Positions 10,309 through 18,295 of a stretch of DNA of 35,283 nt are shown in pieces. The notes below the pieces were generated by a model, which was not told where the DNA came from, did no database searches, and saw nothing but the letters and a program-made list of their open reading frames with translations. This stretch comes from an uncultured Collinsella sp. (GTDB lineage Bacteria > Actinomycetota > Coriobacteriia > Coriobacteriales > Coriobacteriaceae). The position numbers and the translations under genes were made by a program. Position 1 is the first letter of the stretch. Every line of letters starts with the position of its first letter. The stretch covers positions 1-35,283 of the forward strand of contig CAAFGI010000068.1 in the NCBI GenBank assembly GCA_900762405.1. The letters run 5' to 3'.

Positions 10309-11334
10309 TTAAGCAACGAACTTCTCGAAGTACTTGATGGTGCGGACCATCTGAGAAGTGTAGGAGTTCTCGTTGTCGTACCAAGAGGTGACCTGAACGA
10401 GGGTCTGGCCGTTGCCGAGGTCAGAGCACATGGTCTGAGTGGCGTCGAAGATGGAGCCGTGGGTCTCACCGATGATGTCGGTGGAGACGATGTCGTCCTC
10501 GTTGTAACCGAAGGTCTCGGAGATGGTGGCAGCGTAGGCCTTCATAGCGGCGTTGACCTCGTCGACGGTAACCTTCTTGTCAACGACAGCGTAGAGGTTG
10601 GTGATGGAGCCGGTCGGCGTCGGGACGCGCTGGGCAGCACCGATAAGCTTACCGTTGAGCTCGGGGAGAACCAGGCCGATAGCCTTGGCAGCACCGGTGG
10701 TGTTGGGGACGATGTTGACGGCGCAGGCGCGGCTACGACGCTTGTTGCCCTTGCGCTGCGGGCCGTCGAGCGGCATCTGGTCGCCGGTCCAGGCGTGAAT
10801 GGTGGTCATGATGCCGGACACGATGGGAGCGAAGTCGTTCAGACCCTTGGCCATCGGGGCGAGGCAGTTGGTGGTGCAGGAAGCAGCGGAGATGATGTTG
10901 TCCTCAGCGGTCAGCGTCTCATGGTTGACGTTGTACACGATGGTGGGCAGATCGCTGCCGGCCGGAGCGGAGATGACGACCTTCTTGGCGCCAGCGTTGA
11001 TGTGGGCCTGAGCCTTAGCCTTGCTGGTGTAGAAGCCGGTGCACTCGAGAACGACGTCGACGTCGAGGTCGCCCCAAGGCAGGTTGTTGGCGTCGGCCTC
11101 CTTGTAGATCTTGATCTCCTTGCCGTCAACGGTGATGGAATCCTCGCCAGCAACGACCTCGTGATCGCGAGCGTAGTTGCCCTGCGTGGAGTCGTACTTC
11201 AGCAGGTAAGCGAGCATATCGGGAGAGGTGAGGTCGTTGATAGCGACGATCTCGGAGCCCTCATGACCGAACATCTGACGGAAAGCCAGACGACCGATGC
11301 GACCGAAGCCGTTAATAGCAACCTTTACTGCCAT
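10309..11334 (-). CDS. gap: Type I glyceraldehyde-3-phosphate dehydrogenase
   Basis: [16 protein letters not shown] active site, TGAAKA, WYDNE. Start at MAVKV after RBS AAAGGAG. Confidence 0.97.
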
Positions 11335-11468
11335 TGTGTCTCCTTTCGTAAGGCCCCCGCGAGCTACAGCGCCCGCCGTTGAGGCCCACAAACTAACCAC
11401 TCGCCTAATATACCTTTTTTTTGACTTGAATTTCACGAGAATGCTCGAAATTGAAAATCAAATTTACG

Positions 11469-11482
11469 TTAAAACGTTTTAA
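11469..11482. promoter_or_regulatory. Perfect 14-bp palindrome TTAAAACGTTTTAA upstream of gap (candidate LacI-family operator)
   Basis: Palindrome with central CG in the AT-rich gap upstream region; the regulator assignment is inference. Confidence 0.35.
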
Positions 11483-11527
11483 AGAATAAAATAGCAGCTA
11501 AATCCGTATATACGTCGATACTTTAAA

Positions 11528-12457
11528 CTACTTGTTTGCTTCAATGAGCTTTTCAAGCCTCAAAACTCGATGGTAGAGGGCCGACTTCGACAAGGGAGGG
11601 TCAGCCATCTCCCCCAGATCGCGCAGTGACAGATCGGGATAGCGCTCGCGCAGGTCGCAAAAGACCGCCAAGGCGTCCGGAAGCGTGTCGCGCAAACCCC
11701 GCTGTTCGAGCTCATCGATCAACGCAAGCTGATGCTGGGCGGCACCCGCGCTTCTGGTCTGATTGGCCAGTTCGGCATTCACGCGACGGTTTACGTCGTT
11801 CTTAACCAATTTGACCGCGCGCGCTTCCTCGATCTCGGCAACGCTGCGCTTGGCGCCGACCAGCTTTAGGAGCTGCTCGATCTCCTCGGCGCTCTTAATG
11901 TAGACAGCAAAGGATCCGCGCCGCGCGTTAACGCGCGCATGGACCCCAATCTGCTCCAATAGATCGCAAAGTCCCCGGGCATACTGCTCGCCTTGCACCG
12001 CGATCTCCAGATGAAAGTCGCCACGGGGATCGGCCACGAAACCGCCGGCGATGAGCGCGCCGCGGATGTAGGCAAGCCTGCAGCAGGGACGGGCAACGAT
12101 ATGCCGGGGAACACCAGCGACGAGCCCTCCCCTTCGGTCGAGGATGCCCAGCAGCACCAGAGCCTTGTCCAGGTCGGGTTGATCGGGCAGGGTAATGAGA
12201 TAGTTACGGACCTTATGCAAGACCGATTTACGAACGGTGAATTCCGTTTTGAGCTTAAGGATGCGATGCGTCAGTGTGATCATCGTGCGCGCGACGGCAC
12301 CCGTCTCGGTCGCGACCGTCAAACGATACCGCCCGGAGCCGGCCAGCGAAAGTGTACCGCTCACACGCGTCAGGGCGGCAAGCGTCGACAAATCGCAGTA
12401 TTCACATTCGGGTTCGCAGCGCGCGAGCTCGTCACGCACCTCGGCGGTAAACGACAT
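11528..12457 (-). CDS. whiA: DNA-binding protein WhiA
   Basis: MSFTAEVRDEL N-terminus, NRRVNAELAN, C-terminal HTH (LSLRDLG...LSKSALYHR); located downstream of rapZ. Confidence 0.93.
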   Translation of the reverse strand: MSFTAEVRDELARCEPECEYCDLSTLAALTRVSGTLSLAGSGRYRLTVATETGAVARTMITLTHRILKLKTEFTVRKSVLHKVRNYLITLPDQPDLDKALVLLGILDRRGGLVAGVPRHIVARPCCRLAYIRGALIAGGFVADPRGDFHLEIAVQGEQYARGLCDLLEQIGVHARVNARRGSFAVYIKSAEEIEQLLKLVGAKRSVAEIEEARAVKLVKNDVNRRVNAELANQTRSAGAAQHQLALIDELEQRGLRDTLPDALAVFCDLRERYPDLSLRDLGEMADPPLSKSALYHRVLRLEKLIEANK

Positions 12458-12463
12458 GCAGGC

Positions 12464-13384
12464 CTATGCTTTCGTGTTGGCGCGCGACAGGTCGCGATGA
12501 GAAATGCTCACGTGATACTGGGCGCCTTCCAAATAACGTGCCGTGGCCTCGGCGATGGCAACGCTGCGGTGTTGACCGCCCGTGCAACCGATGGCAATAG
12601 AAAGCTGTGGCTTGCCCTCCGCGATATAGCCGGGCATGACCGTATCGAGCAGCTGCGTCCAGGCCTTCCAGAACTCCTGGGTCTTGGGATGGTCCAGAAC
12701 AAAGTCAGAGACTTTCTTATCGAGACCGGTCATCGTGCGCATCTCGGGATCGTAGAACGGATTGGGCAGGAAGCGAACGTCGATCATAATGTCCGCCTCG
12801 ACGGGCATACCGTGCTTAAAGCCAAACGAGAACACGTGAACGTCCATGAGCTGCTGGTCGGACAACTCGGAGAACGCCATGCGCAATTTGTTGCGCAGAG
12901 CAGAGGTGCGCAAGCGGCTCGTATCGATAATCATGTCAGCTCGGTCGCGAACGCCCTGCAGCTGCAGGCGCTCGCGCTGAATCGCATCGGCCGTAGTCTC
13001 CCCCGGCTTGGCAATGGGATGGCGGCGGCGGTTTTCACTATAACGACGGATCAGCACCTCGTCAGAGGCCTCGAGAAACACGATGTCACAGCTCATCTCG
13101 CGCTCCTCGAGTGCGGCAACGGCATCGAGCAGCTCATCGAACAAGCCCTGGCTGCGCAGGTCGCAGGTGACGGCAAGATGCCTGCCCACGCCCGTATTGA
13201 TGCCGACGAGTTCGGCAAGCTGGGCGATCAGACGCGGAGGCAAGTTGTCGATGCAAAAGTAGCCCATGTCCTCGAACACATGCATGGCCTGCGTTCGGCC
13301 CGATCCAGACATTCCGGTGATGATGACGATATCGGGGATGCGCTCCGAGCGCTCCGCCGCATCCATGGCATCTCCCTTTTGCAT
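12464..13384 (-). CDS. rapZ: RapZ/YvcJ-family P-loop nucleotide-binding protein
   Basis: TGMSGSGRT, IDNLPP, SFGFKHG, DVRFLPNP, GCTGGQHRSV. Start at 13384 after AGGAGG; a second ATG six codons later is possible. Confidence 0.93.
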   Translation of the reverse strand: MQKGDAMDAAERSERIPDIVIITGMSGSGRTQAMHVFEDMGYFCIDNLPPRLIAQLAELVGINTGVGRHLAVTCDLRSQGLFDELLDAVAALEEREMSCDIVFLEASDEVLIRRYSENRRRHPIAKPGETTADAIQRERLQLQGVRDRADMIIDTSRLRTSALRNKLRMAFSELSDQQLMDVHVFSFGFKHGMPVEADIMIDVRFLPNPFYDPEMRTMTGLDKKVSDFVLDHPKTQEFWKAWTQLLDTVMPGYIAEGKPQLSIAIGCTGGQHRSVAIAEATARYLEGAQYHVSISHRDLSRANTKA

Positions 13385-13396
13385 GTGCTGCCTCCT

Positions 13397-13432
13397 AAAA
13401 CAAGCGCGGGACCCGGCCAGCGGATCCCGCGC
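13397..13432 (-). terminator. Terminator-like hairpin between nanE and rapZ
   Basis: Minus strand GCGCGGGATCCG-CTGGC-CGGGTCCCGCGC-TTGTTTT. Confidence 0.65.
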
Positions 13433-13483
13433 GATCAATTGCCTTTATTGAGTATACCGCCCCAAGCGGATACGAGGCCTGTC

Positions 13484-14170
13484 TTACGCCTCAAGTGCAG
13501 CCTTGAACCAACTCGTAATACTCGTGGGGTGCGTAATGGCAGTGCCTACGACAACTGCCCAGGCGCCCGCATCAATCGCGGCGCGGGCCTCCTCGGGCGT
13601 GTGCACGCGGCCCTCGCAGATGATGGGAAGACCGGGGAATTCCTCGGTCGCCTGGCGCAGGAGCGGCAGATCAGGGCCATCGGCCATGGTGCAGTCGATG
13701 GCGGCGACACCGTGAGAAAGCGTAGTGGATACCAGGTCAAAGCCCATATCAACTGCACGGCGAATGTCCTCGATGGTGGCACAATCCGCCATCAGGAGCA
13801 CGCCCTCCTCGTGCAGCGGACGGAAGGTGTCCTCGACGGTCTTGCCATCGGGACGTGGGCGATCAGTGGCATCAATTGCCACGATGTCGGCACCGGCGGC
13901 AACGCAGGCGCGAGCATGACGCAGCGTCGGCGTGATGTAGACGCCCTCGTGCCCATCCTTCCACAAGCCGATGACGGGGACCTCGCAGCGGCCCTTAATG
14001 GCGGCGATGTCGGCAAGACCCTGGCAGCGAATAGCGGCGGCGCCACCAAGCTCGCAGGCGCGAGACATCTGAGCCATGGTCTCGGGCGTACGAAGCGGCT
14101 CGCCCATATAGGCCTGAACGCTCACGACGAGCTTGCCCTTTAGGGACTGGATCAAAGGATCAACGGTCAT
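13484..14170 (-). CDS. nanE: N-acetylmannosamine-6-phosphate 2-epimerase
   Basis: LVVSVQA, PVIGLWK, VYITPT, AIDATDRPRPDG, CEGRVHTP, VVGTAITHP. Start at MTVDP after GAAAGG. Confidence 0.92.
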   Translation of the reverse strand: MTVDPLIQSLKGKLVVSVQAYMGEPLRTPETMAQMSRACELGGAAAIRCQGLADIAAIKGRCEVPVIGLWKDGHEGVYITPTLRHARACVAAGADIVAIDATDRPRPDGKTVEDTFRPLHEEGVLLMADCATIEDIRRAVDMGFDLVSTTLSHGVAAIDCTMADGPDLPLLRQATEEFPGLPIICEGRVHTPEEARAAIDAGAWAVVVGTAITHPTSITSWFKAALEA

Positions 14171-14195
14171 GTTCGACTCAACCTTTCTCAAAACA

Positions 14196-14293
14196 GCCTT
14201 CTGAGACACCGCACCTTGACGTTCAAACCGTCGCTCGCATACCAAAGTACGCTTCGCTCCTCTTTCACGTCAATCTGCGGCACCTCAGAAGGC
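14196..14293 (-). repeat. Structured intergenic repeat, copy 1 (~98-nt hairpin)
   Basis: Long hairpin whose G-T wobbles form on the minus strand; aligns with 15348-15448 (+). Confidence 0.7.
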
Positions 14294-14310
14294 GCACTTG
14301 GTAGTTATGT

Positions 14311-15276
14311 TTACTTCAACGACGCAAGAAGGTGTTCGGCGGCACCGATAAGCGGCGCGTCGCCCTCCAGAGAACCGATGAGGATCGGCGTGTCCTGAAG
14401 CGGGTCGAGCGCCTGGCTGGCATAGCCCTCGTGCACCGAGTCCTTCCACGTTTGCGAGCGCCAATCGGGACCCTGGTGAATCACACCTCCCGAAAGCACG
14501 ATGACCTCGGGATCCAAGATGTTGGCAAGCGAGCCCAAGCTGGCGCCCAGCGCAAAGCCGGCGTCATGGATGACCTCGGTCGCCTTTGCGTCGCCCGCAC
14601 GGCACAGGTCGTTCACATCGCGACCGACCGAAGGACGGCTGGGGTCGACGCGACCAAAGCGCTCATCGTACATACGACCAATGGAAGTGCCCGAAGCAAC
14701 CGACTCAAGATGACCAGAACGTCCGCAGGCGCAGGGAATGCCGGCGGCAGCCGAGCACTCGATATGGCCCATATGGCCGGCAGCACCATGGAAGCCTTGC
14801 ATCACGCGGCCGTCCTCGACATATGCGCCGCCGATGCCTGTACCGATGCCCAGACACAAGACGGAGAACTTGCCCTTGCCGACGCCCCAGTGGGCCTCGC
14901 CCAGAGCATGAGCCTGCACGTCGCCCACAACGGCAACGGGAAGACCAAGGTCCTCCCGCAGACGCGGCCCCAACTGAACGCCGGACCAGCCGGGCATGAT
15001 CTCGTTGGCATAGGCGATGGCGCCCGTCTTGGGATCGACGACGCCTGCGGCACCGATACCGACGCCGAGGACCTTGACATCGGGATTCGCCTCAAGAGCG
15101 GCCTTAATGGACGCCTCGATACGCTGGAAGACGGCCTCGCCGCCCTCCTGGGCCTCTGTAGGAACCTCGGCCTCAAATACGGGATGGGGCACGCTGCCGT
15201 CAGCCGGATACTCCATAATGGCAGTCGCAATTTTGGTGCCGCCGATATCGACGGAGCAAACGTACTTGTTCTCCAT
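14311..15276 (-). CDS. nanK: ROK-family kinase, probable N-acetylmannosamine kinase
   Basis: VDIGGTKI, GTGIGG, NanK-like GHMGH, CACGRSGHLE metal motif; lies between nanA and nanE; RBS AAGGAG. Confidence 0.8.
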   Translation of the reverse strand: MENKYVCSVDIGGTKIATAIMEYPADGSVPHPVFEAEVPTEAQEGGEAVFQRIEASIKAALEANPDVKVLGVGIGAAGVVDPKTGAIAYANEIMPGWSGVQLGPRLREDLGLPVAVVGDVQAHALGEAHWGVGKGKFSVLCLGIGTGIGGAYVEDGRVMQGFHGAAGHMGHIECSAAAGIPCACGRSGHLESVASGTSIGRMYDERFGRVDPSRPSVGRDVNDLCRAGDAKATEVIHDAGFALGASLGSLANILDPEVIVLSGGVIHQGPDWRSQTWKDSVHEGYASQALDPLQDTPILIGSLEGDAPLIGAAEHLLASLK

Positions 15277-15347
15277 GTCGCTCTCCTTAGGAGATAAAAA
15301 CAACTACAGGAAATGCGCCGTCAGACTAGCCGCCACAGCGCGGTAAA

Positions 15348-15448
15348 GGTTTTCCAGGTGCCCGAGGTTGGGGTGAAAGTGGTCAGGCGTTGACCTAATG
15401 GGTCATGCCCGACCACTTGAGCCCCAAGATTGGGTGCCTGGGGAAGCC
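15348..15448 (+). repeat. Structured intergenic repeat, copy 2 (~101-nt hairpin)
   Basis: Long hairpin whose G-T wobbles form on the plus strand; homologous to the reverse complement of 14196-14293. Confidence 0.7.
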
Positions 15449-16369
15449 TTACAGGAGACCGTTGTCCTGGAGGACCTTCTTAATCGCCTCGACGTTCTCG
15501 CCGGTCATGGCCTTCACCGGGCGCGGCATGGTCGGGCTGTCGAAGATGCCCATGAGGTTCATAGCGGTCTTGAAGGCGCCGACGCCACCGGCATAGCCCT
15601 GGACGCCCGAGGTGACATCCCAGATGTGCGAAATCTCATTGAGGCGATCCTGCTCGGCCTTGACGGTAGCCCAGTCACCAGCCTGAGCGGCCTTCCACTG
15701 ACGCACGTAGCCCTCGGGCTCAACGTTGGCGAGACCCGGGACGGAACCGTCGGCGCCACCGAGGTAGGCGCCATCGACAACAACCTCGTGACCGGTAAGG
15801 ATGCTCATCGGATGGCCGTTCTTCTCGTTCTCCTGAACGAGGTAGCGGAACGAGATGTCATCGCCCGAGGAATCCTTGACGCCGGCCAGGACGCCCTCGG
15901 CGCCGAGCTTGGCAAGGAGCTTCCAGGGGAGCTTGGTGTGGACGCACACGGGGATGTCGTAGGCGAAGATGGGCAGGTCGAGCTCCTCGTGCAGGATGCG
16001 GAAGTGCTCCTCGACCTCGGTCATGCCCTGCAGGGCATAGAACGGGCAGGTAGCGACGAGGGCATCGGCGCCCAGCTCCTGGGCGACCTTGCCGTGCTCG
16101 ATCATGCGCTCGGTCTCGGTGTCGATGATGCCGACCAGAACGGGAACGCGGTGGTCGACGATGCGCACGGCCTCGGCGATGATCTGACGGCGACGCTCGT
16201 CGGTGGAGAAGACGACCTCGCCCGAGGAGCCCAGGAAGAACAGGCCATCGACGCCGGCATCGATCATGCGGTTGATGCTGCGCTCAAAGGAGGCAACGTC
16301 AAGCTGGTGGTCTTCGGTATCGGGAACAACGACGGGAGGGATAACGCCGGTGAATTTCTGAGTTGCCAC
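15449..16369 (-). CDS. nanA: DHDPS-family aldolase, probable N-acetylneuraminate lyase
   Basis: GSSGE motif, catalytic Tyr (AYDIP) and Schiff-base Lys (GVKDSSGD); GTG start after AAGGAG; nanK/nanE context. Confidence 0.82.
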   Translation of the reverse strand: MATQKFTGVIPPVVVPDTEDHQLDVASFERSINRMIDAGVDGLFFLGSSGEVVFSTDERRRQIIAEAVRIVDHRVPVLVGIIDTETERMIEHGKVAQELGADALVATCPFYALQGMTEVEEHFRILHEELDLPIFAYDIPVCVHTKLPWKLLAKLGAEGVLAGVKDSSGDDISFRYLVQENEKNGHPMSILTGHEVVVDGAYLGGADGSVPGLANVEPEGYVRQWKAAQAGDWATVKAEQDRLNEISHIWDVTSGVQGYAGGVGAFKTAMNLMGIFDSPTMPRPVKAMTGENVEAIKKVLQDNGLL

Positions 16370-16437
16370 AAGAATCTCCTTAGTTGTCTGGCGGGCGACC
16401 CTATGCCACCCACTCTTGTTGGCAGTGTCCAGGCCGT

Positions 16438-17289
16438 CTAGGCCAAAGAACACGGGTAGAACGTTTGGTTAAAGAAGTCGACGACTTCGTTTTCGAACGC
16501 ATTGATGCGCTCATGAGCGTATTTGGCATAGATGATATGCCTCCGGTCACACTCAAAACCGTTGAATACGGCAAACTGACCCTTGGGGTCGCTCACGGTA
16601 TCCATAAGCGATGTGCCCATGAGCACCGAGCCGCGCACCCGAGACGACAGTGCCTCGAGGCCACCGGGAATCGGATTGGCGACCGCCGTGCAGGCGAGGC
16701 CCTGCTCATCCAAAGCAGAAACCGCCAGCGCGACTCCGCCGCCAAGGCCCTCGCCCCATGCAAAGATGCGGTCGGGGTCCATGCCATCAAGATTGCGCGC
16801 AACCTTCGCCAACGCGCAACCCCAACGGACGCGCTCGACAAAAGCGGGCGAGGTAATCCCCTGCTGCAGATCGTCCGCACCAGCAACATCGTCATCCAGC
16901 GCGAGAACGGCATACCCCATGGCGGCAAATCTCGTCATGTGATGCCAGCCGCGCACAGGCCGATCGATGTCGTGAAACATCAGGCACAGCGGCACACGCT
17001 CAGATACTCGGGCACGACCAACAGGCTCAATCAAACGAGCGTGGACCGCATCGTCACCGAGTTCAAAGGAAACCTCGGAGTAACGGGCGCAGGGGTTAAC
17101 AAAGTCAATCGCCGTAATGGCCAGGCCTTGAATCTCAAGATTCGAAGCGCATGCCTCTAAATCAGAAACATCTGCTTGGACGTCACCGTACCAGCCCCGA
17201 TATTCTGCGAGCCTTAACGAAATCGTTCCAGGAATTCCCACGAGCCCGGGGACTATCAGCTCGTCAACATTGCTCTCGCACTTAGACAT
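16438..17289 (-). CDS. Acetylxylan-esterase (CE7)-like protein lacking the catalytic serine
   Basis: Collinear with the upstream esterase, but GEGLG replaces GxSQG; HE is retained; RBS GGGGAGG; 8-nt overlap with the upstream stop. Confidence 0.7.
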   Translation of the reverse strand: MSKCESNVDELIVPGLVGIPGTISLRLAEYRGWYGDVQADVSDLEACASNLEIQGLAITAIDFVNPCARYSEVSFELGDDAVHARLIEPVGRARVSERVPLCLMFHDIDRPVRGWHHMTRFAAMGYAVLALDDDVAGADDLQQGITSPAFVERVRWGCALAKVARNLDGMDPDRIFAWGEGLGGGVALAVSALDEQGLACTAVANPIPGGLEALSSRVRGSVLMGTSLMDTVSDPKGQFAVFNGFECDRRHIIYAKYAHERINAFENEVVDFFNQTFYPCSLA

Positions 17290-18259
17290 GAGCCTCCCCT
17301 CCCTTGCAGAAAAACGGAATGATCAGATCATCAAAGTCCTGAATCTCCTCGTGGCCAAAGCCCTCAAAGAACTCATGACGCTTGTCGCAGGACAGGTTGT
17401 TGTACACCGCAAACTGCGTTGCCGGCGGGCAGACGATATCGGCCGTGCCCGTGCCAAACAGCACGGGGCACTTGACCATGGGGGCAAAATTCTTGGAATC
17501 GAAGTACGCCAGCTTGGCATAGGCTTCCTCGATACGAGTCGAGTCCTCGTCAAACCAACGCGACCAATAGCGCAGGCCCTCGTAGGCAATATCGTCGGCG
17601 TCCAGATCCCAAACCAGGCGGAAGTCCGATAAGAAGGGATAGAGGATGGCCGCGCGGTCAACCAAATCGCTGTTAAGCGCGCAGGTCGCAATACCCAAAC
17701 CGCCGCCCTGCGATGCGCCGTTCACATACACGCGGGTAAGATCGATGCCCTCGAGCTCGCGAACGATACGGCACAGAATGCGAATATCCTGGTGCAAGCG
17801 GACATAGTAGAGATTGGCCGGGTCGCCGTCGATACCGGCGACGATATGGCCCGCGACCGTCGTGCCCTCAAATCCACCAATATCCTCGGAGGGGCCACCC
17901 TGGCCGGGGCAGTCGAGAGCAATGAGCGCCATGCCCATGCCCGCAAACGACGCCTGCTCAAACCAGCTGCGGCTCGCACCCGGATATCCATGGAACTGAA
18001 GCACCAGCGGCATGGGCTCCTCCGAGACCGGCTTGAGGTACTTGGCATGCAGGCGTGCACCACACATGCCGGTATACCAGAGGTCGAAAAACCGACAGGT
18101 CGCGGAATCCGCAACCGAAGCCGCCTCGATCGCGTAGTCGAGCTCGACGGCGTCGGCCTCGGCCATGCGGTCCTTCCAAAAGAGATCGAAATCCGATGGA
18201 CGGGGCATAGCGCCTCGATATTCACCAAATTGCTGTTGTAGCTCTTGAGCACTTGGCAT
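17282..18259 (-). CDS. Acetylxylan esterase/cephalosporin-C deacetylase (CE7) family, putative sialate O-acetylesterase
   Basis: PSDFDLFW, FHGY, PGQ, GASQGG nucleophile elbow, Asp (ADIVCPP), GHE. Start uncertain (ATG 18259 vs TTG 18274). Confidence 0.82.
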   Translation of the reverse strand: MPSAQELQQQFGEYRGAMPRPSDFDLFWKDRMAEADAVELDYAIEAASVADSATCRFFDLWYTGMCGARLHAKYLKPVSEEPMPLVLQFHGYPGASRSWFEQASFAGMGMALIALDCPGQGGPSEDIGGFEGTTVAGHIVAGIDGDPANLYYVRLHQDIRILCRIVRELEGIDLTRVYVNGASQGGGLGIATCALNSDLVDRAAILYPFLSDFRLVWDLDADDIAYEGLRYWSRWFDEDSTRIEEAYAKLAYFDSKNFAPMVKCPVLFGTGTADIVCPPATQFAVYNNLSCDKRHEFFEGFGHEEIQDFDDLIIPFFCKGGEAHV

Positions 18260-18295
18260 GGCTCGTGAACCCAACCTTTCGAAATCGCAACGGAG

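Follow-up and report, generated by a model that had tools for sequence, protein, structure and literature searches.

Two hairpins in a Collinsella nan operon belong to a dispersed, strand-specific repeat family of Coriobacteriales

Results

Two structured repeats in the spacers of a nan operon

The window, by which we mean the whole 35,283-nucleotide stretch of DNA from an uncultured Collinsella sp. that was analyzed, carries genes of a nan operon on its minus strand. Two long hairpins lie in the spacers between these genes, in opposite orientations:

13487..14170, minus strand: nanE, N-acetylmannosamine-6-phosphate epimerase (Pfam PF04131, E = 7e-51), downstream of copy 1
14190..14195, minus strand: UGUUUU tail, read from the sequence, directly 3' of copy 1 in the operon sense
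14196..14293, minus strand: copy 1, a stand-alone A-type hairpin repeat (from its fold; covariance model match 14190-14298, minus strand, 102.2 bits)
14314..15276, minus strand: ROK-family sugar kinase, nanK-like (Pfam PF00480, E = 3.5e-50), between copies 1 and 2
15343..15452, plus strand: copy 2, an A-type hairpin repeat (from its fold; covariance model match 15343-15453, plus strand, 95.3 bits)
15449..15451, minus strand: TAA stop codon of the NanA-like lyase (open reading frame 15449..16453, minus strand), inside the outer stem of copy 2
15452..16453, minus strand: DHDPS-family lyase, NanA-like (Pfam PF00701, E = 3.1e-41), upstream of copy 2

Copy 1 is sense to the operon and lies 19 nt past the stop codon of the ROK kinase, while copy 2 is antisense to it and takes up the greater part of the spacer that separates the nanA-like gene from the ROK kinase gene. 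The two point in opposite directions because copy 1 is one of the rare sense-oriented copies of its family. An earlier note, made from the sequence alone, had located both elements correctly, its 15348-15448 being the core of copy 2. When folded as RNA, the own strand of copy 1 reached −56.5 kcal/mol (z = −6.5) and that of copy 2 −75.7 kcal/mol (z = −10.8), with 0 of 200 shuffles equally stable in either case; their complements reached −38.6 and −57.5 kcal/mol, respectively.

In a five-sequence MAFFT alignment, the copies are identical at 58 of 106 shared columns (55%), which is lower than the 65-70% arm identity that had been estimated by hand. The differences do largely preserve pairing, as the same note had claimed for the outer stems: among 40 consensus pairs, 17 are identical, 7 have changed on one side and 10 on both sides with pairing kept, and 6 are broken in one copy. 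Both copies also contain the non-canonical features it described, namely a tandem of G.U pairs at GGTGCC/GGTG(C/T)C, a 2x2 purine loop, and a GA/GA tandem. The similarity between the copies is not due to chance, because copy 2 alone, used as a BLAST query, and genome-wide profiles both retrieve further copies. No sigma-70-like promoter was found around either copy, and a scan of positions 13400-16600 for consensus intrinsic terminators returned 0 sites, leaving the UGUUUU tail of copy 1 unflagged as well.

A repeat family of Collinsella and related families

A family had initially been proposed from these two copies, and further homologs are indeed present in the same draft genome and in its relatives. 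Iterated nhmmer searches, run to convergence, detected 39 family sites in the genome, each on one strand and 4 of them cut by contig ends. A covariance model (R1) detected 28 distinct sites, with scores far higher on the forward than on the reverse strand (e.g., 120.8 vs 50.6 bits). The family is carried by 23 of 24 other genomes of the genus (species sampled), with copy numbers per genome from 0-2 to 35 or more. Across the class, it was found in 31/33 genomes of family f1, 16/24 of f3, 1/14 of f6, and 1/1 of f9, and in 0 of 78 genomes from 20 other families. It spans the genus and two further families of the order. An exact pattern of the left arm matched at least 135 stretches, nearly all in Collinsella records; searches of other replicons gave 0 plasmid matches and 2 viral contigs.

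No Rfam family, Collinsella-1 included, matched at its gathering score anywhere in the window, and the initial description of an unrecognized family of strand-specific structured elements stands. Rfam scans by E-value of positions 14100-15550 and of five other copies returned nothing beyond chance matches to hairpins of miRNA precursors, which scored far below threshold. Such a repeat is not described in the literature that we searched on repeats and structured RNAs of Collinsella and Coriobacteriia, and it has apparently not been described before. Fremin and Bhatt 2021 (PMC8040213) list many Collinsella candidate RNAs and 250 palindromic candidates, and the family may be present in this catalog without a name.

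Architecture and strand-specific pairing

The 39 copies fall into two subfamilies that share a common architecture. From base to tip, the 110-nt hairpin consists of an outer stem, a tandem of G.T pairs, a 2x2 purine loop, a stem of 6-7 bp, a GA/GA tandem, and a variable apical hairpin, which is frequently capped by a TTCG or TTTG loop. Of 92 distinct sequences, 19 have the apex GCGTAC-TTCG-GTACGC and 23 have its TTTG variant. In relatives outside the genus, the hairpin is part of a longer unit, composed of a left module, CAGCGAGG, the hairpin, GCAGCGTC, and a small hairpin. CAGCGA(GG) and GCAGCGTC are the conserved flanks of the element. Two copies with 100% identical hairpins of 105 nt carry different small hairpins beside them. 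No regular T-run was present in the flanks of the 39 copies, the UGUUUU tail being confined to copy 1. "Empty" composite units (CAGCGA, short hairpin, GCAGCGTC), which could be targets, were absent from the window's own genome, and no family of short hairpins with the common outer stem was found.

Covariation, which had been noted between the two copies, holds throughout the family. In the 92 sequences, the proportion of paired cells is 96.7% and both sides have changed in 27 of 32 pairs, a level that 0 of 500 shuffles reached, with slid controls at 47.5% or less. The GA/GA tandem is found in 78 of the 92, and GA/GG loops are conserved as well. Outside the conserved tandem, G.T was counted in 137 cells and A.C in 21; among orthologs of copy 2, which are antisense to the operon, the counts were 200 and 27. 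The forward strand was more stable in 28/28 copies with RNA parameters and in 26/28 with DNA parameters, although the complements also fold (−38 to −64 kcal/mol). Pairing is thus conserved on one strand only, and the structure follows the polarity of the element rather than that of the operon, as the wobbles in the two copies had led the earlier note to expect. Mutation bias was considered as a source of the G.T excess and rejected on theoretical grounds, as cytosine deamination on an exposed strand would raise A.C, not G.T.

These features are consistent with a functional RNA transcribed from the own strand of the element, for example an antisense or small RNA that binds protein, whose rod of G.A loops and UUCG-type cap would form the binding surface. 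Such an RNA would fit the one-strand pairing with its strong preference for G.U over A.C, the conserved purine loops, the recurrent TTCG and TTTG apices, and the conservation across families of the order; purine loops together with a frequent TTCG apex are, in our view, reminiscent of protein-binding structured RNAs. We nevertheless consider this explanation unlikely. No upstream flank that might serve as a promoter is conserved among the stand-alone A-type copies, a −10 position in the composite form would land in the hypervariable stem, and no sigma-70-like promoter was found around the two window copies. In addition, most copies lie antisense to mRNA within tight operon spacers, their number ranges from 0-2 to 35 or more in a single genus, and they have no relative in Rfam.

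Position, orientation, and replication

All 39 copies lie between called genes or overlap gene ends only. They abut stop codons and are nearly always antisense to the gene ending there: in the window's own genome, 23 are antisense to both neighbors, 2 are sense to both, 8 lie between convergent genes, 6 have a one-sided context, and none lies between divergent genes. All 8 convergent copies are antisense to whichever gene ends at the forward 3' end of the element. The contexts in the complete genome G021 were similar in kind (19 antisense, 4 sense, 6 convergent, and 1 divergent).

Orientation was also compared with the direction of replication in three complete genomes, in which dnaA lies at 1.8 kb (G185), 2.606 Mb (G191), and 1.770 Mb (G021). 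The strand of the element switches at dnaA, with 28/29, 32/35, and 25/30 sites following this pattern, respectively (85/94 in total). In these genomes, the stably folding strand is the template of the leading strand. The far switch in G191, at 0.88-1.30 Mb, is not opposite dnaA, and with the terminus set half-way round 29 of its 35 sites fit, not 32. Approximately 84% of the neighboring genes are co-oriented with replication, so that gene direction and replication direction are confounded; among some 10 sites that separate the two, 7 follow the replichore and 3 the gene, a count based on crude gene calls and including several sites with large gaps.

The preference for sites right behind the stop codons of co-directional or convergent genes (divergent contexts 0/33 in the window's own genome and 1/30 in G021), the folding of the complement, and the U-rich tail of copy 1 could all reflect a function at the level of mRNA. 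Intercistronic or 3'-end stem-loops might block exonucleases, provide sites for RNase III, or serve as U-tract-poor terminators, thereby tuning the relative expression of neighboring genes, and REP and Correia elements are known to tune relative expression in this manner. However, it is the weaker complement that is present in the mRNA at 31 of 33 two-sided contexts. The wobbles likewise show that pairing is kept on the non-mRNA strand (in the mRNA, the ratio of A.C to G.U is approximately 6:1), and most copies lie inside operons and have no U-tract. We regard a selected role in mRNA as doubtful, to much the same degree as the functional RNA.

Turnover and mobility

Of the 48 orthologous nan loci that were read, 47 contain copy 2, in two allelic forms, and copy 2 is an old resident of this site. 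G054 carries 1.5 tandem copies. Copy 1 is present in 33 of the 48 loci and absent from 14, in which nanK is retained and a short terminator-like hairpin takes the place of the repeat. At the copy 1 site, G054 has an identical outer stem and tail that lack the core; a related short hairpin is found in 13 other genomes, and no target duplication was seen at the site. The UGUUUU tail and the outer stem of copy 1 look like a pre-existing intercistronic terminator or attenuator hairpin, and the tail appears to be inherited from such an older short hairpin. Copy 1 would then likely have been gained within the loop of a terminator-like hairpin between nanK and nanE, an order of events that rests only on the outlying G054. 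Long and short copy 1 alleles are intermixed in a tree of nanK, in the manner of two old haplotypes that recombination has shuffled.

Presence, absence, internal deletion, and tandem duplication were all observed at single sites of the family. At another element site, which is empty in G012, the copy in G055 is shortened by an internal deletion between the two GGYGCC repeats, and an unrelated hairpin is present in G067 and G069. The only empty site contains a 6-nt direct repeat (GAAACC), which is explained equally well by deletion or insertion. With respect to the features of MITEs, the whole element is an inverted repeat, no clean target-site duplication was seen, and the search for a parent insertion sequence covered Y1_Tnp. 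Extra blocks of 3.7-5.5 kb found at one element site in G020, G060, G056, and G051 were considered as cassettes, and they carry no elements at their borders.

Searches for Y1_Tnp and for an integron integrase did not identify a mobilizing enzyme. A REPIN-RAYT system, with a domesticated transposase of the Y1 (IS200-like) type mobilizing the hairpins, is suggested by the REPIN-like size of the hairpin and by the presence of Y1_Tnp in 31/33 genomes of the window's own family. The window's genome itself contains genes for three Y1_Tnp proteins; in NCBIfam, they best match the REP-associated tyrosine transposase, with scores of 62, 44, and 55 bits where the cut-off is 80. The three contigs encoding them contain no copy of the element, however, and the Y1 genes are not flanked by matching hairpins. 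The two distributions also diverge: in family f3 the element occurs in 16/24 genomes and Y1_Tnp in 6/24, in genus g23 the element occurs in 5/5 and Y1 in 0/5, and about 30-35 copies are present in each of G185 and G191, neither of which gave a Y1 match. A conserved GTAG-like 5' tetranucleotide beside a short imperfect palindrome is characteristic of REPs and REPINs, and no GTAG-type 5' motif was present in the flanks. Finally, the stable strand lies on the leading-strand template, which is opposite to the strand preference reported for IS200/IS605. Taken together, this makes a REPIN-RAYT system very unlikely.

Least credible of all are readings of the hairpins as attC-like sites in a cassette system resembling an integron, or as the recombination ends of a mobile module containing nanK: strand-specific hairpins just past stop codons with the structured strand antisense to the gene, variable stems between conserved flanks, and two genes flanked by pairs of copies would fit, but no integron integrase was found (TIGR02249, 0/4 genomes over the cut-off, best 71 bits vs 265), copies are scattered singly rather than in arrays, the extra gene blocks in four genomes are not bordered by elements, and nanK is collinear in 33/33 full-length orthologous matches and remains in place at the 14 loci without copy 1, which rules out a module specific to nanK.

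Discussion

The earlier note had left three options, of which that of recombination ends bracketing nanK fails and that of an ERIC/BOX/REP-like repeat is borne out by 39 copies in one genome and a distribution throughout the genus and beyond the family. These are many dispersed, homologous intergenic hairpins, whose number varies between relatives. We consider it reasonably probable (roughly 0.6) that the family is a chromosomal mosaic hairpin repeat of Collinsella and other Coriobacteriales, similar to REP, BIME, and ERIC, rather than a device belonging to the nan operon, that it persists through a strand-specific fold of single-stranded DNA, and that selection acts on one strand of the DNA. 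As such, it is likely to persist as a selfish folded-DNA element. The family would occasionally spread as a strand-specific fold of single-stranded DNA, with new copies arising when hairpins recombine or undergo gene conversion with one another, or through some enzyme. Survivors would mainly be copies oriented such that the stable fold does not lie on the lagging-strand template, on which hairpins would promote deletion.

Like the REP, BIME, and REPIN sequences of proteobacteria, the Collinsella repeat occurs as tens of intergenic hairpins past the stop codons of co-directional or convergent genes, is a mosaic of several modules, has a REPIN-like hairpin of approximately 100 nt, and changes in both arms together. 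It differs from them in lacking sequence relation, a GTAG-type motif, and a RAYT link, in forming one long rod, interrupted by three to five purine-purine internal loops, instead of paired short REPs, and in its strong replichore polarity. ERIC/IRU, Correia (nemis), BOX, and RUP elements are likewise imperfect palindromes of 100-150 nt in transcribed intergenic regions, which form long RNA hairpins and occur in both orientations, and BOX is modular, as is the composite form of the Collinsella repeat. These elements have effects on mRNA processing. They belong to a different phylum and differ in sequence, whereas the Collinsella repeat has no TA or other clear target duplication, its better-folding strand is nearly always the non-mRNA strand, and its orientation tracks replication.

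Integron attC sites resemble it in conserving structure over sequence, in a strand-specific fold with unpaired bases, and in their position immediately after a gene, where the strand that folds is the one opposite to the mRNA; the attC folding strand of chromosomal integrons is on the leading-strand template. In contrast, the Collinsella repeat has no integron integrase, arrays, or, in the sequences read, R''/R' core sites, and the genes it flanks are conserved operon genes. MITEs derived from IS200/IS605 (PATEs) share the hairpin basis and the replication-biased orientation, but the Collinsella repeat has neither their two-end LE/RE structure nor their dependence on a Y1 transposase, and its stable strand lies on the other template strand.

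The great stability at orthologous sites (copy 2 in 47/48 loci) and the age of the family fit a host function as well as they fit a selfish repeat. A rather improbable reading is that of a new class of replication-polarized, strand-specific folded nucleic-acid elements across Coriobacteriales, which would be read by a host or mobile protein and be independent of RAYTs and integron integrases. Its features would be a 110-nt rod with periodic tandem G.A loops, tandem G.U pairs, and a UUCG-type cap, located at the ends of genes on the leading-strand template. If true, this would imply a role in genome architecture or in the traffic between replication and transcription, or a new hairpin-based mechanism of mobility.

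The non-coding repertoire of Collinsella and its relatives, which are common bacteria of the human gut, is almost undescribed. The repeat occupies many of their operon spacers, and annotators of small RNAs, terminators, and regulatory motifs will keep encountering it. Its strand reports the replichore, making it a useful marker for strain typing and orientation, and it offers a natural case for studying the survival of long palindromes in bacterial chromosomes and the long-term foldability of one strand. Both copies would still form long stem-loops in the nan mRNA and could alter its local decay or read-through, although any such effect would be a side effect rather than the property under selection. 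For the operon itself, the repeat matters only in the form of these two large stem-loops, which may change how stable the nanA, nanK, and nanE messages are relative to one another.

Two related hairpins flank the kinase gene of the nan operon

The nan operon runs on the minus strand from a NanA-like lyase gene through an ROK kinase gene (nanK-like) to nanE, and each of its two spacers holds a hairpin. Genes were called with a custom codon-usage caller, and the calls in the window were checked against Pfam.

14196-14293, minus strand: copy 1, hairpin in the nanK-like/nanE spacer
15343-15452, plus strand: copy 2, hairpin in the NanA-like/nanK-like spacer
16441-17289 and 17285-18274, minus strand: a pair of neighboring esterase genes of the AXE1 family, upstream of the NanA-like gene
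10312-13438, minus strand: RapZ, WhiA and GAPDH genes, on the same strand directly downstream of nanE

Each copy folds into one long hairpin on the strand listed (-56.5 kcal/mol with z -6.5 for copy 1, -75.7 kcal/mol with z -10.8 for copy 2), a fold matched by 0 of 200 shuffles in either case, and the complement strands fold worse by 18 kcal/mol. The earlier note had described the pair as homologous and 65-70% identical by hand alignment; the two can indeed be aligned, but they are identical at only 58 of 106 aligned columns. Its observation that pairing outlasts these differences held, as 10 of the 40 consensus pairs were changed on both sides and another 7 on one side, all still paired. The features it named were also found: the tandem G.U pairs (GGTGCC on both arms), the 2x2 purine loop, and the GA/GA tandem. 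A consensus scan around the two window copies detected nothing promoter-like or terminator-like.

The hairpins belong to a dispersed repeat family

With copy 2 as BLAST query, 3 further copies were found in the source draft assembly (hereafter, own genome). A covariance-model search, suggested earlier and run with a model built from five copies, yielded 28 distinct sites there, with forward scores about twice the reverse ones, forward being the better-folding strand. An iterated nhmmer profile converged at 39 own-genome sites, each on a single strand, 4 of them truncated by contig ends. Twelve are of the type of the window pair (type A), while 27 belong to a type B that shares the inner architecture and differs in its stems. 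Type B is housed in a conserved unit of ~200 nt, consisting of a left module, TCAGCGA, the hairpin, GCAGCGTC, and a small second hairpin, and two A copies (contigs C65 and C46) retain these flanks. In two complete genomes from another family of the order, 20 of 20 copies read carried an A-type hairpin within the composite unit. The composite thus probably came first, with the window copies as stripped versions of it.

A further short repeat (motif GGAACGTCCCCAA, partly palindromic with TAGTCATTGGGGACGTTCTTAAACGACTAG) lies 40-120 nt from composite units in the own genome, whose intergenic DNA is thus built from several repeat modules in mosaic fashion. It was seen flanking B-type copies on, for example, C56, C195, C189, C153, C10, and C109, none of which lie in the window.

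The exact 24-letter left-arm pattern matched at least 135 stretches in the species collection. Among the 80 matches listed, nearly all were Collinsella records, C. aerofaciens included; the only one outside Coriobacteriia, in Lawsonibacter hominis (NZ_JACOPP010000022.1:35773-36096), is probably a chance match, as it gave no covariance-model match at E <= 1e-8. The family was present in 23 of 24 other genomes of the genus, with copies per genome ranging from 0-2 to more than 35 (the upper figures being lower bounds). A draw of 150 genomes from across the class, with model matches counted per family, gave matches in 31/33 genomes of the own family, in 16/24, 1/14, and 1/1 genomes of three other families of the order, and in 0/78 genomes of 20 further families. 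The plasmids searched gave no match, and 2.9 million viral contigs gave two. In Rfam, proposed as a check on novelty, nothing matched at gathering score, and the weaker hits were only noise from miRNA hairpins. No published description of the repeat was found in the literature searchable as full text; the catalogue in PMC8040213 may, in parts outside that text, list the family unnamed.

The fold is conserved on one strand

Conservation of the structure was tested on a MAFFT alignment of 94 sequences (92 distinct), comprising the 2 window copies, 62 pattern-scan loci (of 78 with a forward model match, 16 same-score duplicates being dropped), 20 copies from the other family, and 10 own-genome copies. 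Standard pairs filled 96.7% of cells and two-sided changes occurred at 27 of 32 pairs, figures in which the left arm is partly fixed by the pattern scan in 62 rows and cell counts are inflated by relatedness. None of 500 shuffles reached any of the measures, and slid controls were at most 47.5% paired. The tandem G.U pairs were swapped for Watson-Crick pairs in some relatives (12/92 and 9/92 rows). The inner loop was GA/GA in 78/92 sequences; the outer loop was GA/GG, GG/GA, or GA/GA in 84/92 and never GG/GG. TTTG (23) and TTCG (19) were the commonest apical loops.

The claim that the structure follows the polarity of the element was borne out. With the conserved tandem excluded, G.T outnumbered A.C by 137 to 21 cells, at 22 versus 11 positions, and the forward strand was the better folder in 28/28 copies with RNA energies and 26/28 with DNA energies. 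The conserved fold is therefore that of the element's own strand. Among 38 distinct orthologues of copy 2, a copy that runs antisense to the operon, the ratio was 200 to 27, and every long-lived wobble position was G.T on the element's strand.

Orientation relative to genes and replication

Of the 39 own-genome copies, 23 lay antisense between co-directional genes, 8 between convergent genes, and 0 between divergent genes; 2, copy 1 and one type B copy, lay in the sense direction, and 6 had one side missing. In 31/31 antisense or convergent cases, the gene adjoining the forward 3' end of the element was transcribed toward it, with the stop codon ~0-40 nt away. In A copies, the stop often falls within the outer stem, as does that of the NanA-like gene (15449-15451).

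In three complete genomes, the element strand flips at dnaA. The fit was 28/29 sites in G185 (dnaA at 1.8 kb), 25/30 in G021 (1.770 Mb), and 32/35 in G191 (2.606 Mb) with the terminus at the observed far switch (0.88-1.30 Mb), or 29/35 with the terminus set opposite dnaA. The well-folding strand is thus the leading-strand template, the complement of the leading strand. About 84% of neighboring genes are co-oriented with replication, and gene direction and fork direction are therefore confounded; at ~10 sites where gene and replichore disagree, 7 followed the replichore and 3 the gene, these being weak calls, some with large gaps.

Loss and probable gain and replacement at individual sites

The nan region was matched in 59 of 61 genomes of the genus (33 matches full-length and collinear), and 48 loci were read. 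Copy 2 was single in 46 of these and missing in the divergent G050, where the spacer is 58 nt. Genome G054 has ~1.5 tandem copies: its 251-nt nanA-like/nanK spacer (L087, G054:C1:23900-26300) holds a partial and then a complete element, in a tandem or nested arrangement. Copy 2 alleles fall into two forms (20 and 26 loci) with a common outer stem and apical loop. Both inner stems differ by many fully compensated changes despite flanking genes that are ~93-95% identical, which points to conversion (replacement) rather than stepwise drift.

Copy 1 was present and nearly invariant in 33 of the 48 loci. Comparison of strains, advised in the earlier note, did reveal loci that lack copy 1. In 13 of them, a 55-nt spacer holds an 11-bp hairpin followed by a GTTCTGAG tail. 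G054 also has a 55-nt spacer, in which the short hairpin is exactly the copy 1 outer stem, followed by the same GTTTTGAG tail as in copy 1. On the nanK tree, the long alleles are scattered among the short ones, a strongly supported pattern with G054 as the outlier, and the two are therefore old haplotypes shuffled by recombination. The short hairpin could have been left in G054 by deletion of the copy 1 core, but that same hairpin makes it likelier that a terminator-like hairpin came first and that the core was inserted into its loop.

A second site, on contig C6, is empty in G012, where a 6-nt direct repeat marks the junction; in G055 the outer stem alone is left, by deletion between two GGYGCC direct repeats, and G067 and G069 have an unrelated hairpin. 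The first C6 site is longer by ~82 to 91 nt in G019 and G052, resembling the G054 copy 2 site. At C6:7372-7476, where the own genome reads gene-element-gene, four genomes (G020, G060, G056, and G051; L236-L239) have 3.7-5.5 kb of extra co-directional genes, and the borders of these blocks carry no elements.

A mosaic hairpin repeat with a strand preference

Taken together, the results match an interspersed repeat of mosaic build and hairpin form, of the REP/BIME/ERIC type and new to this clade; the ERIC/BOX/REP-like option raised in the earlier note agrees with 39 dispersed own-genome copies and a genus-wide presence. Three features are unusual: a rod with periodic purine loops is conserved on one strand only, that strand is almost absent from mRNAs, and the element is polarized with respect to replication. 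Because no upstream flank is conserved among stand-alone copies and the majority of copies lie antisense within operons, we think that the strand is selected as DNA, not RNA.

Survivorship appears to be the simplest account of the orientation, and leans on work on hairpin-prone repeats: a long palindrome would be lost by deletion if the lagging-strand template exposes its stable strand, and would be kept if that strand serves as template for the leading strand. The internal deletions and precise losses observed are of the kind expected under survivorship. There is also evidence of copying between sites, in the identical 105-nt hairpins with different flanks and in the two-form replacement at copy 2. 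An obvious missing piece would be a protein reading the fold.

No integron integrase was found in the genomes searched. Three Y1_Tnp (IS200-like) proteins are encoded in the own genome (C42:17851-18354, C55:3910-4836, and C127:17543-18391), their best NCBIfam match being the REP-associated tyrosine transposase, below the curated cut-off; two of them are complete in the assembly, at ~280-310 aa and with a C-terminal helix-turn-helix tail. Neither elements nor flanking repeats were found around the three genes. The presence of Y1_Tnp does not follow that of the element across the class (element 16/24 versus Y1 6/24 genomes in one family, f3; 5/5 versus 0/5 in one genus, g23), and G185 and G191 have no Y1 match.

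As part of the nan mRNA, each window copy would still fold into a large stem-loop, that of copy 1 having the strong orientation and a U-rich tail, and an influence on transcript ends or stability is plausible.

Of the neighboring genes, the first AXE1 gene matches only the last ~60 profile positions over 283 aa, and may therefore be a diverged or decayed paralogue. The RapZ, WhiA, and GAPDH genes that follow the nan genes form a conserved housekeeping cluster.
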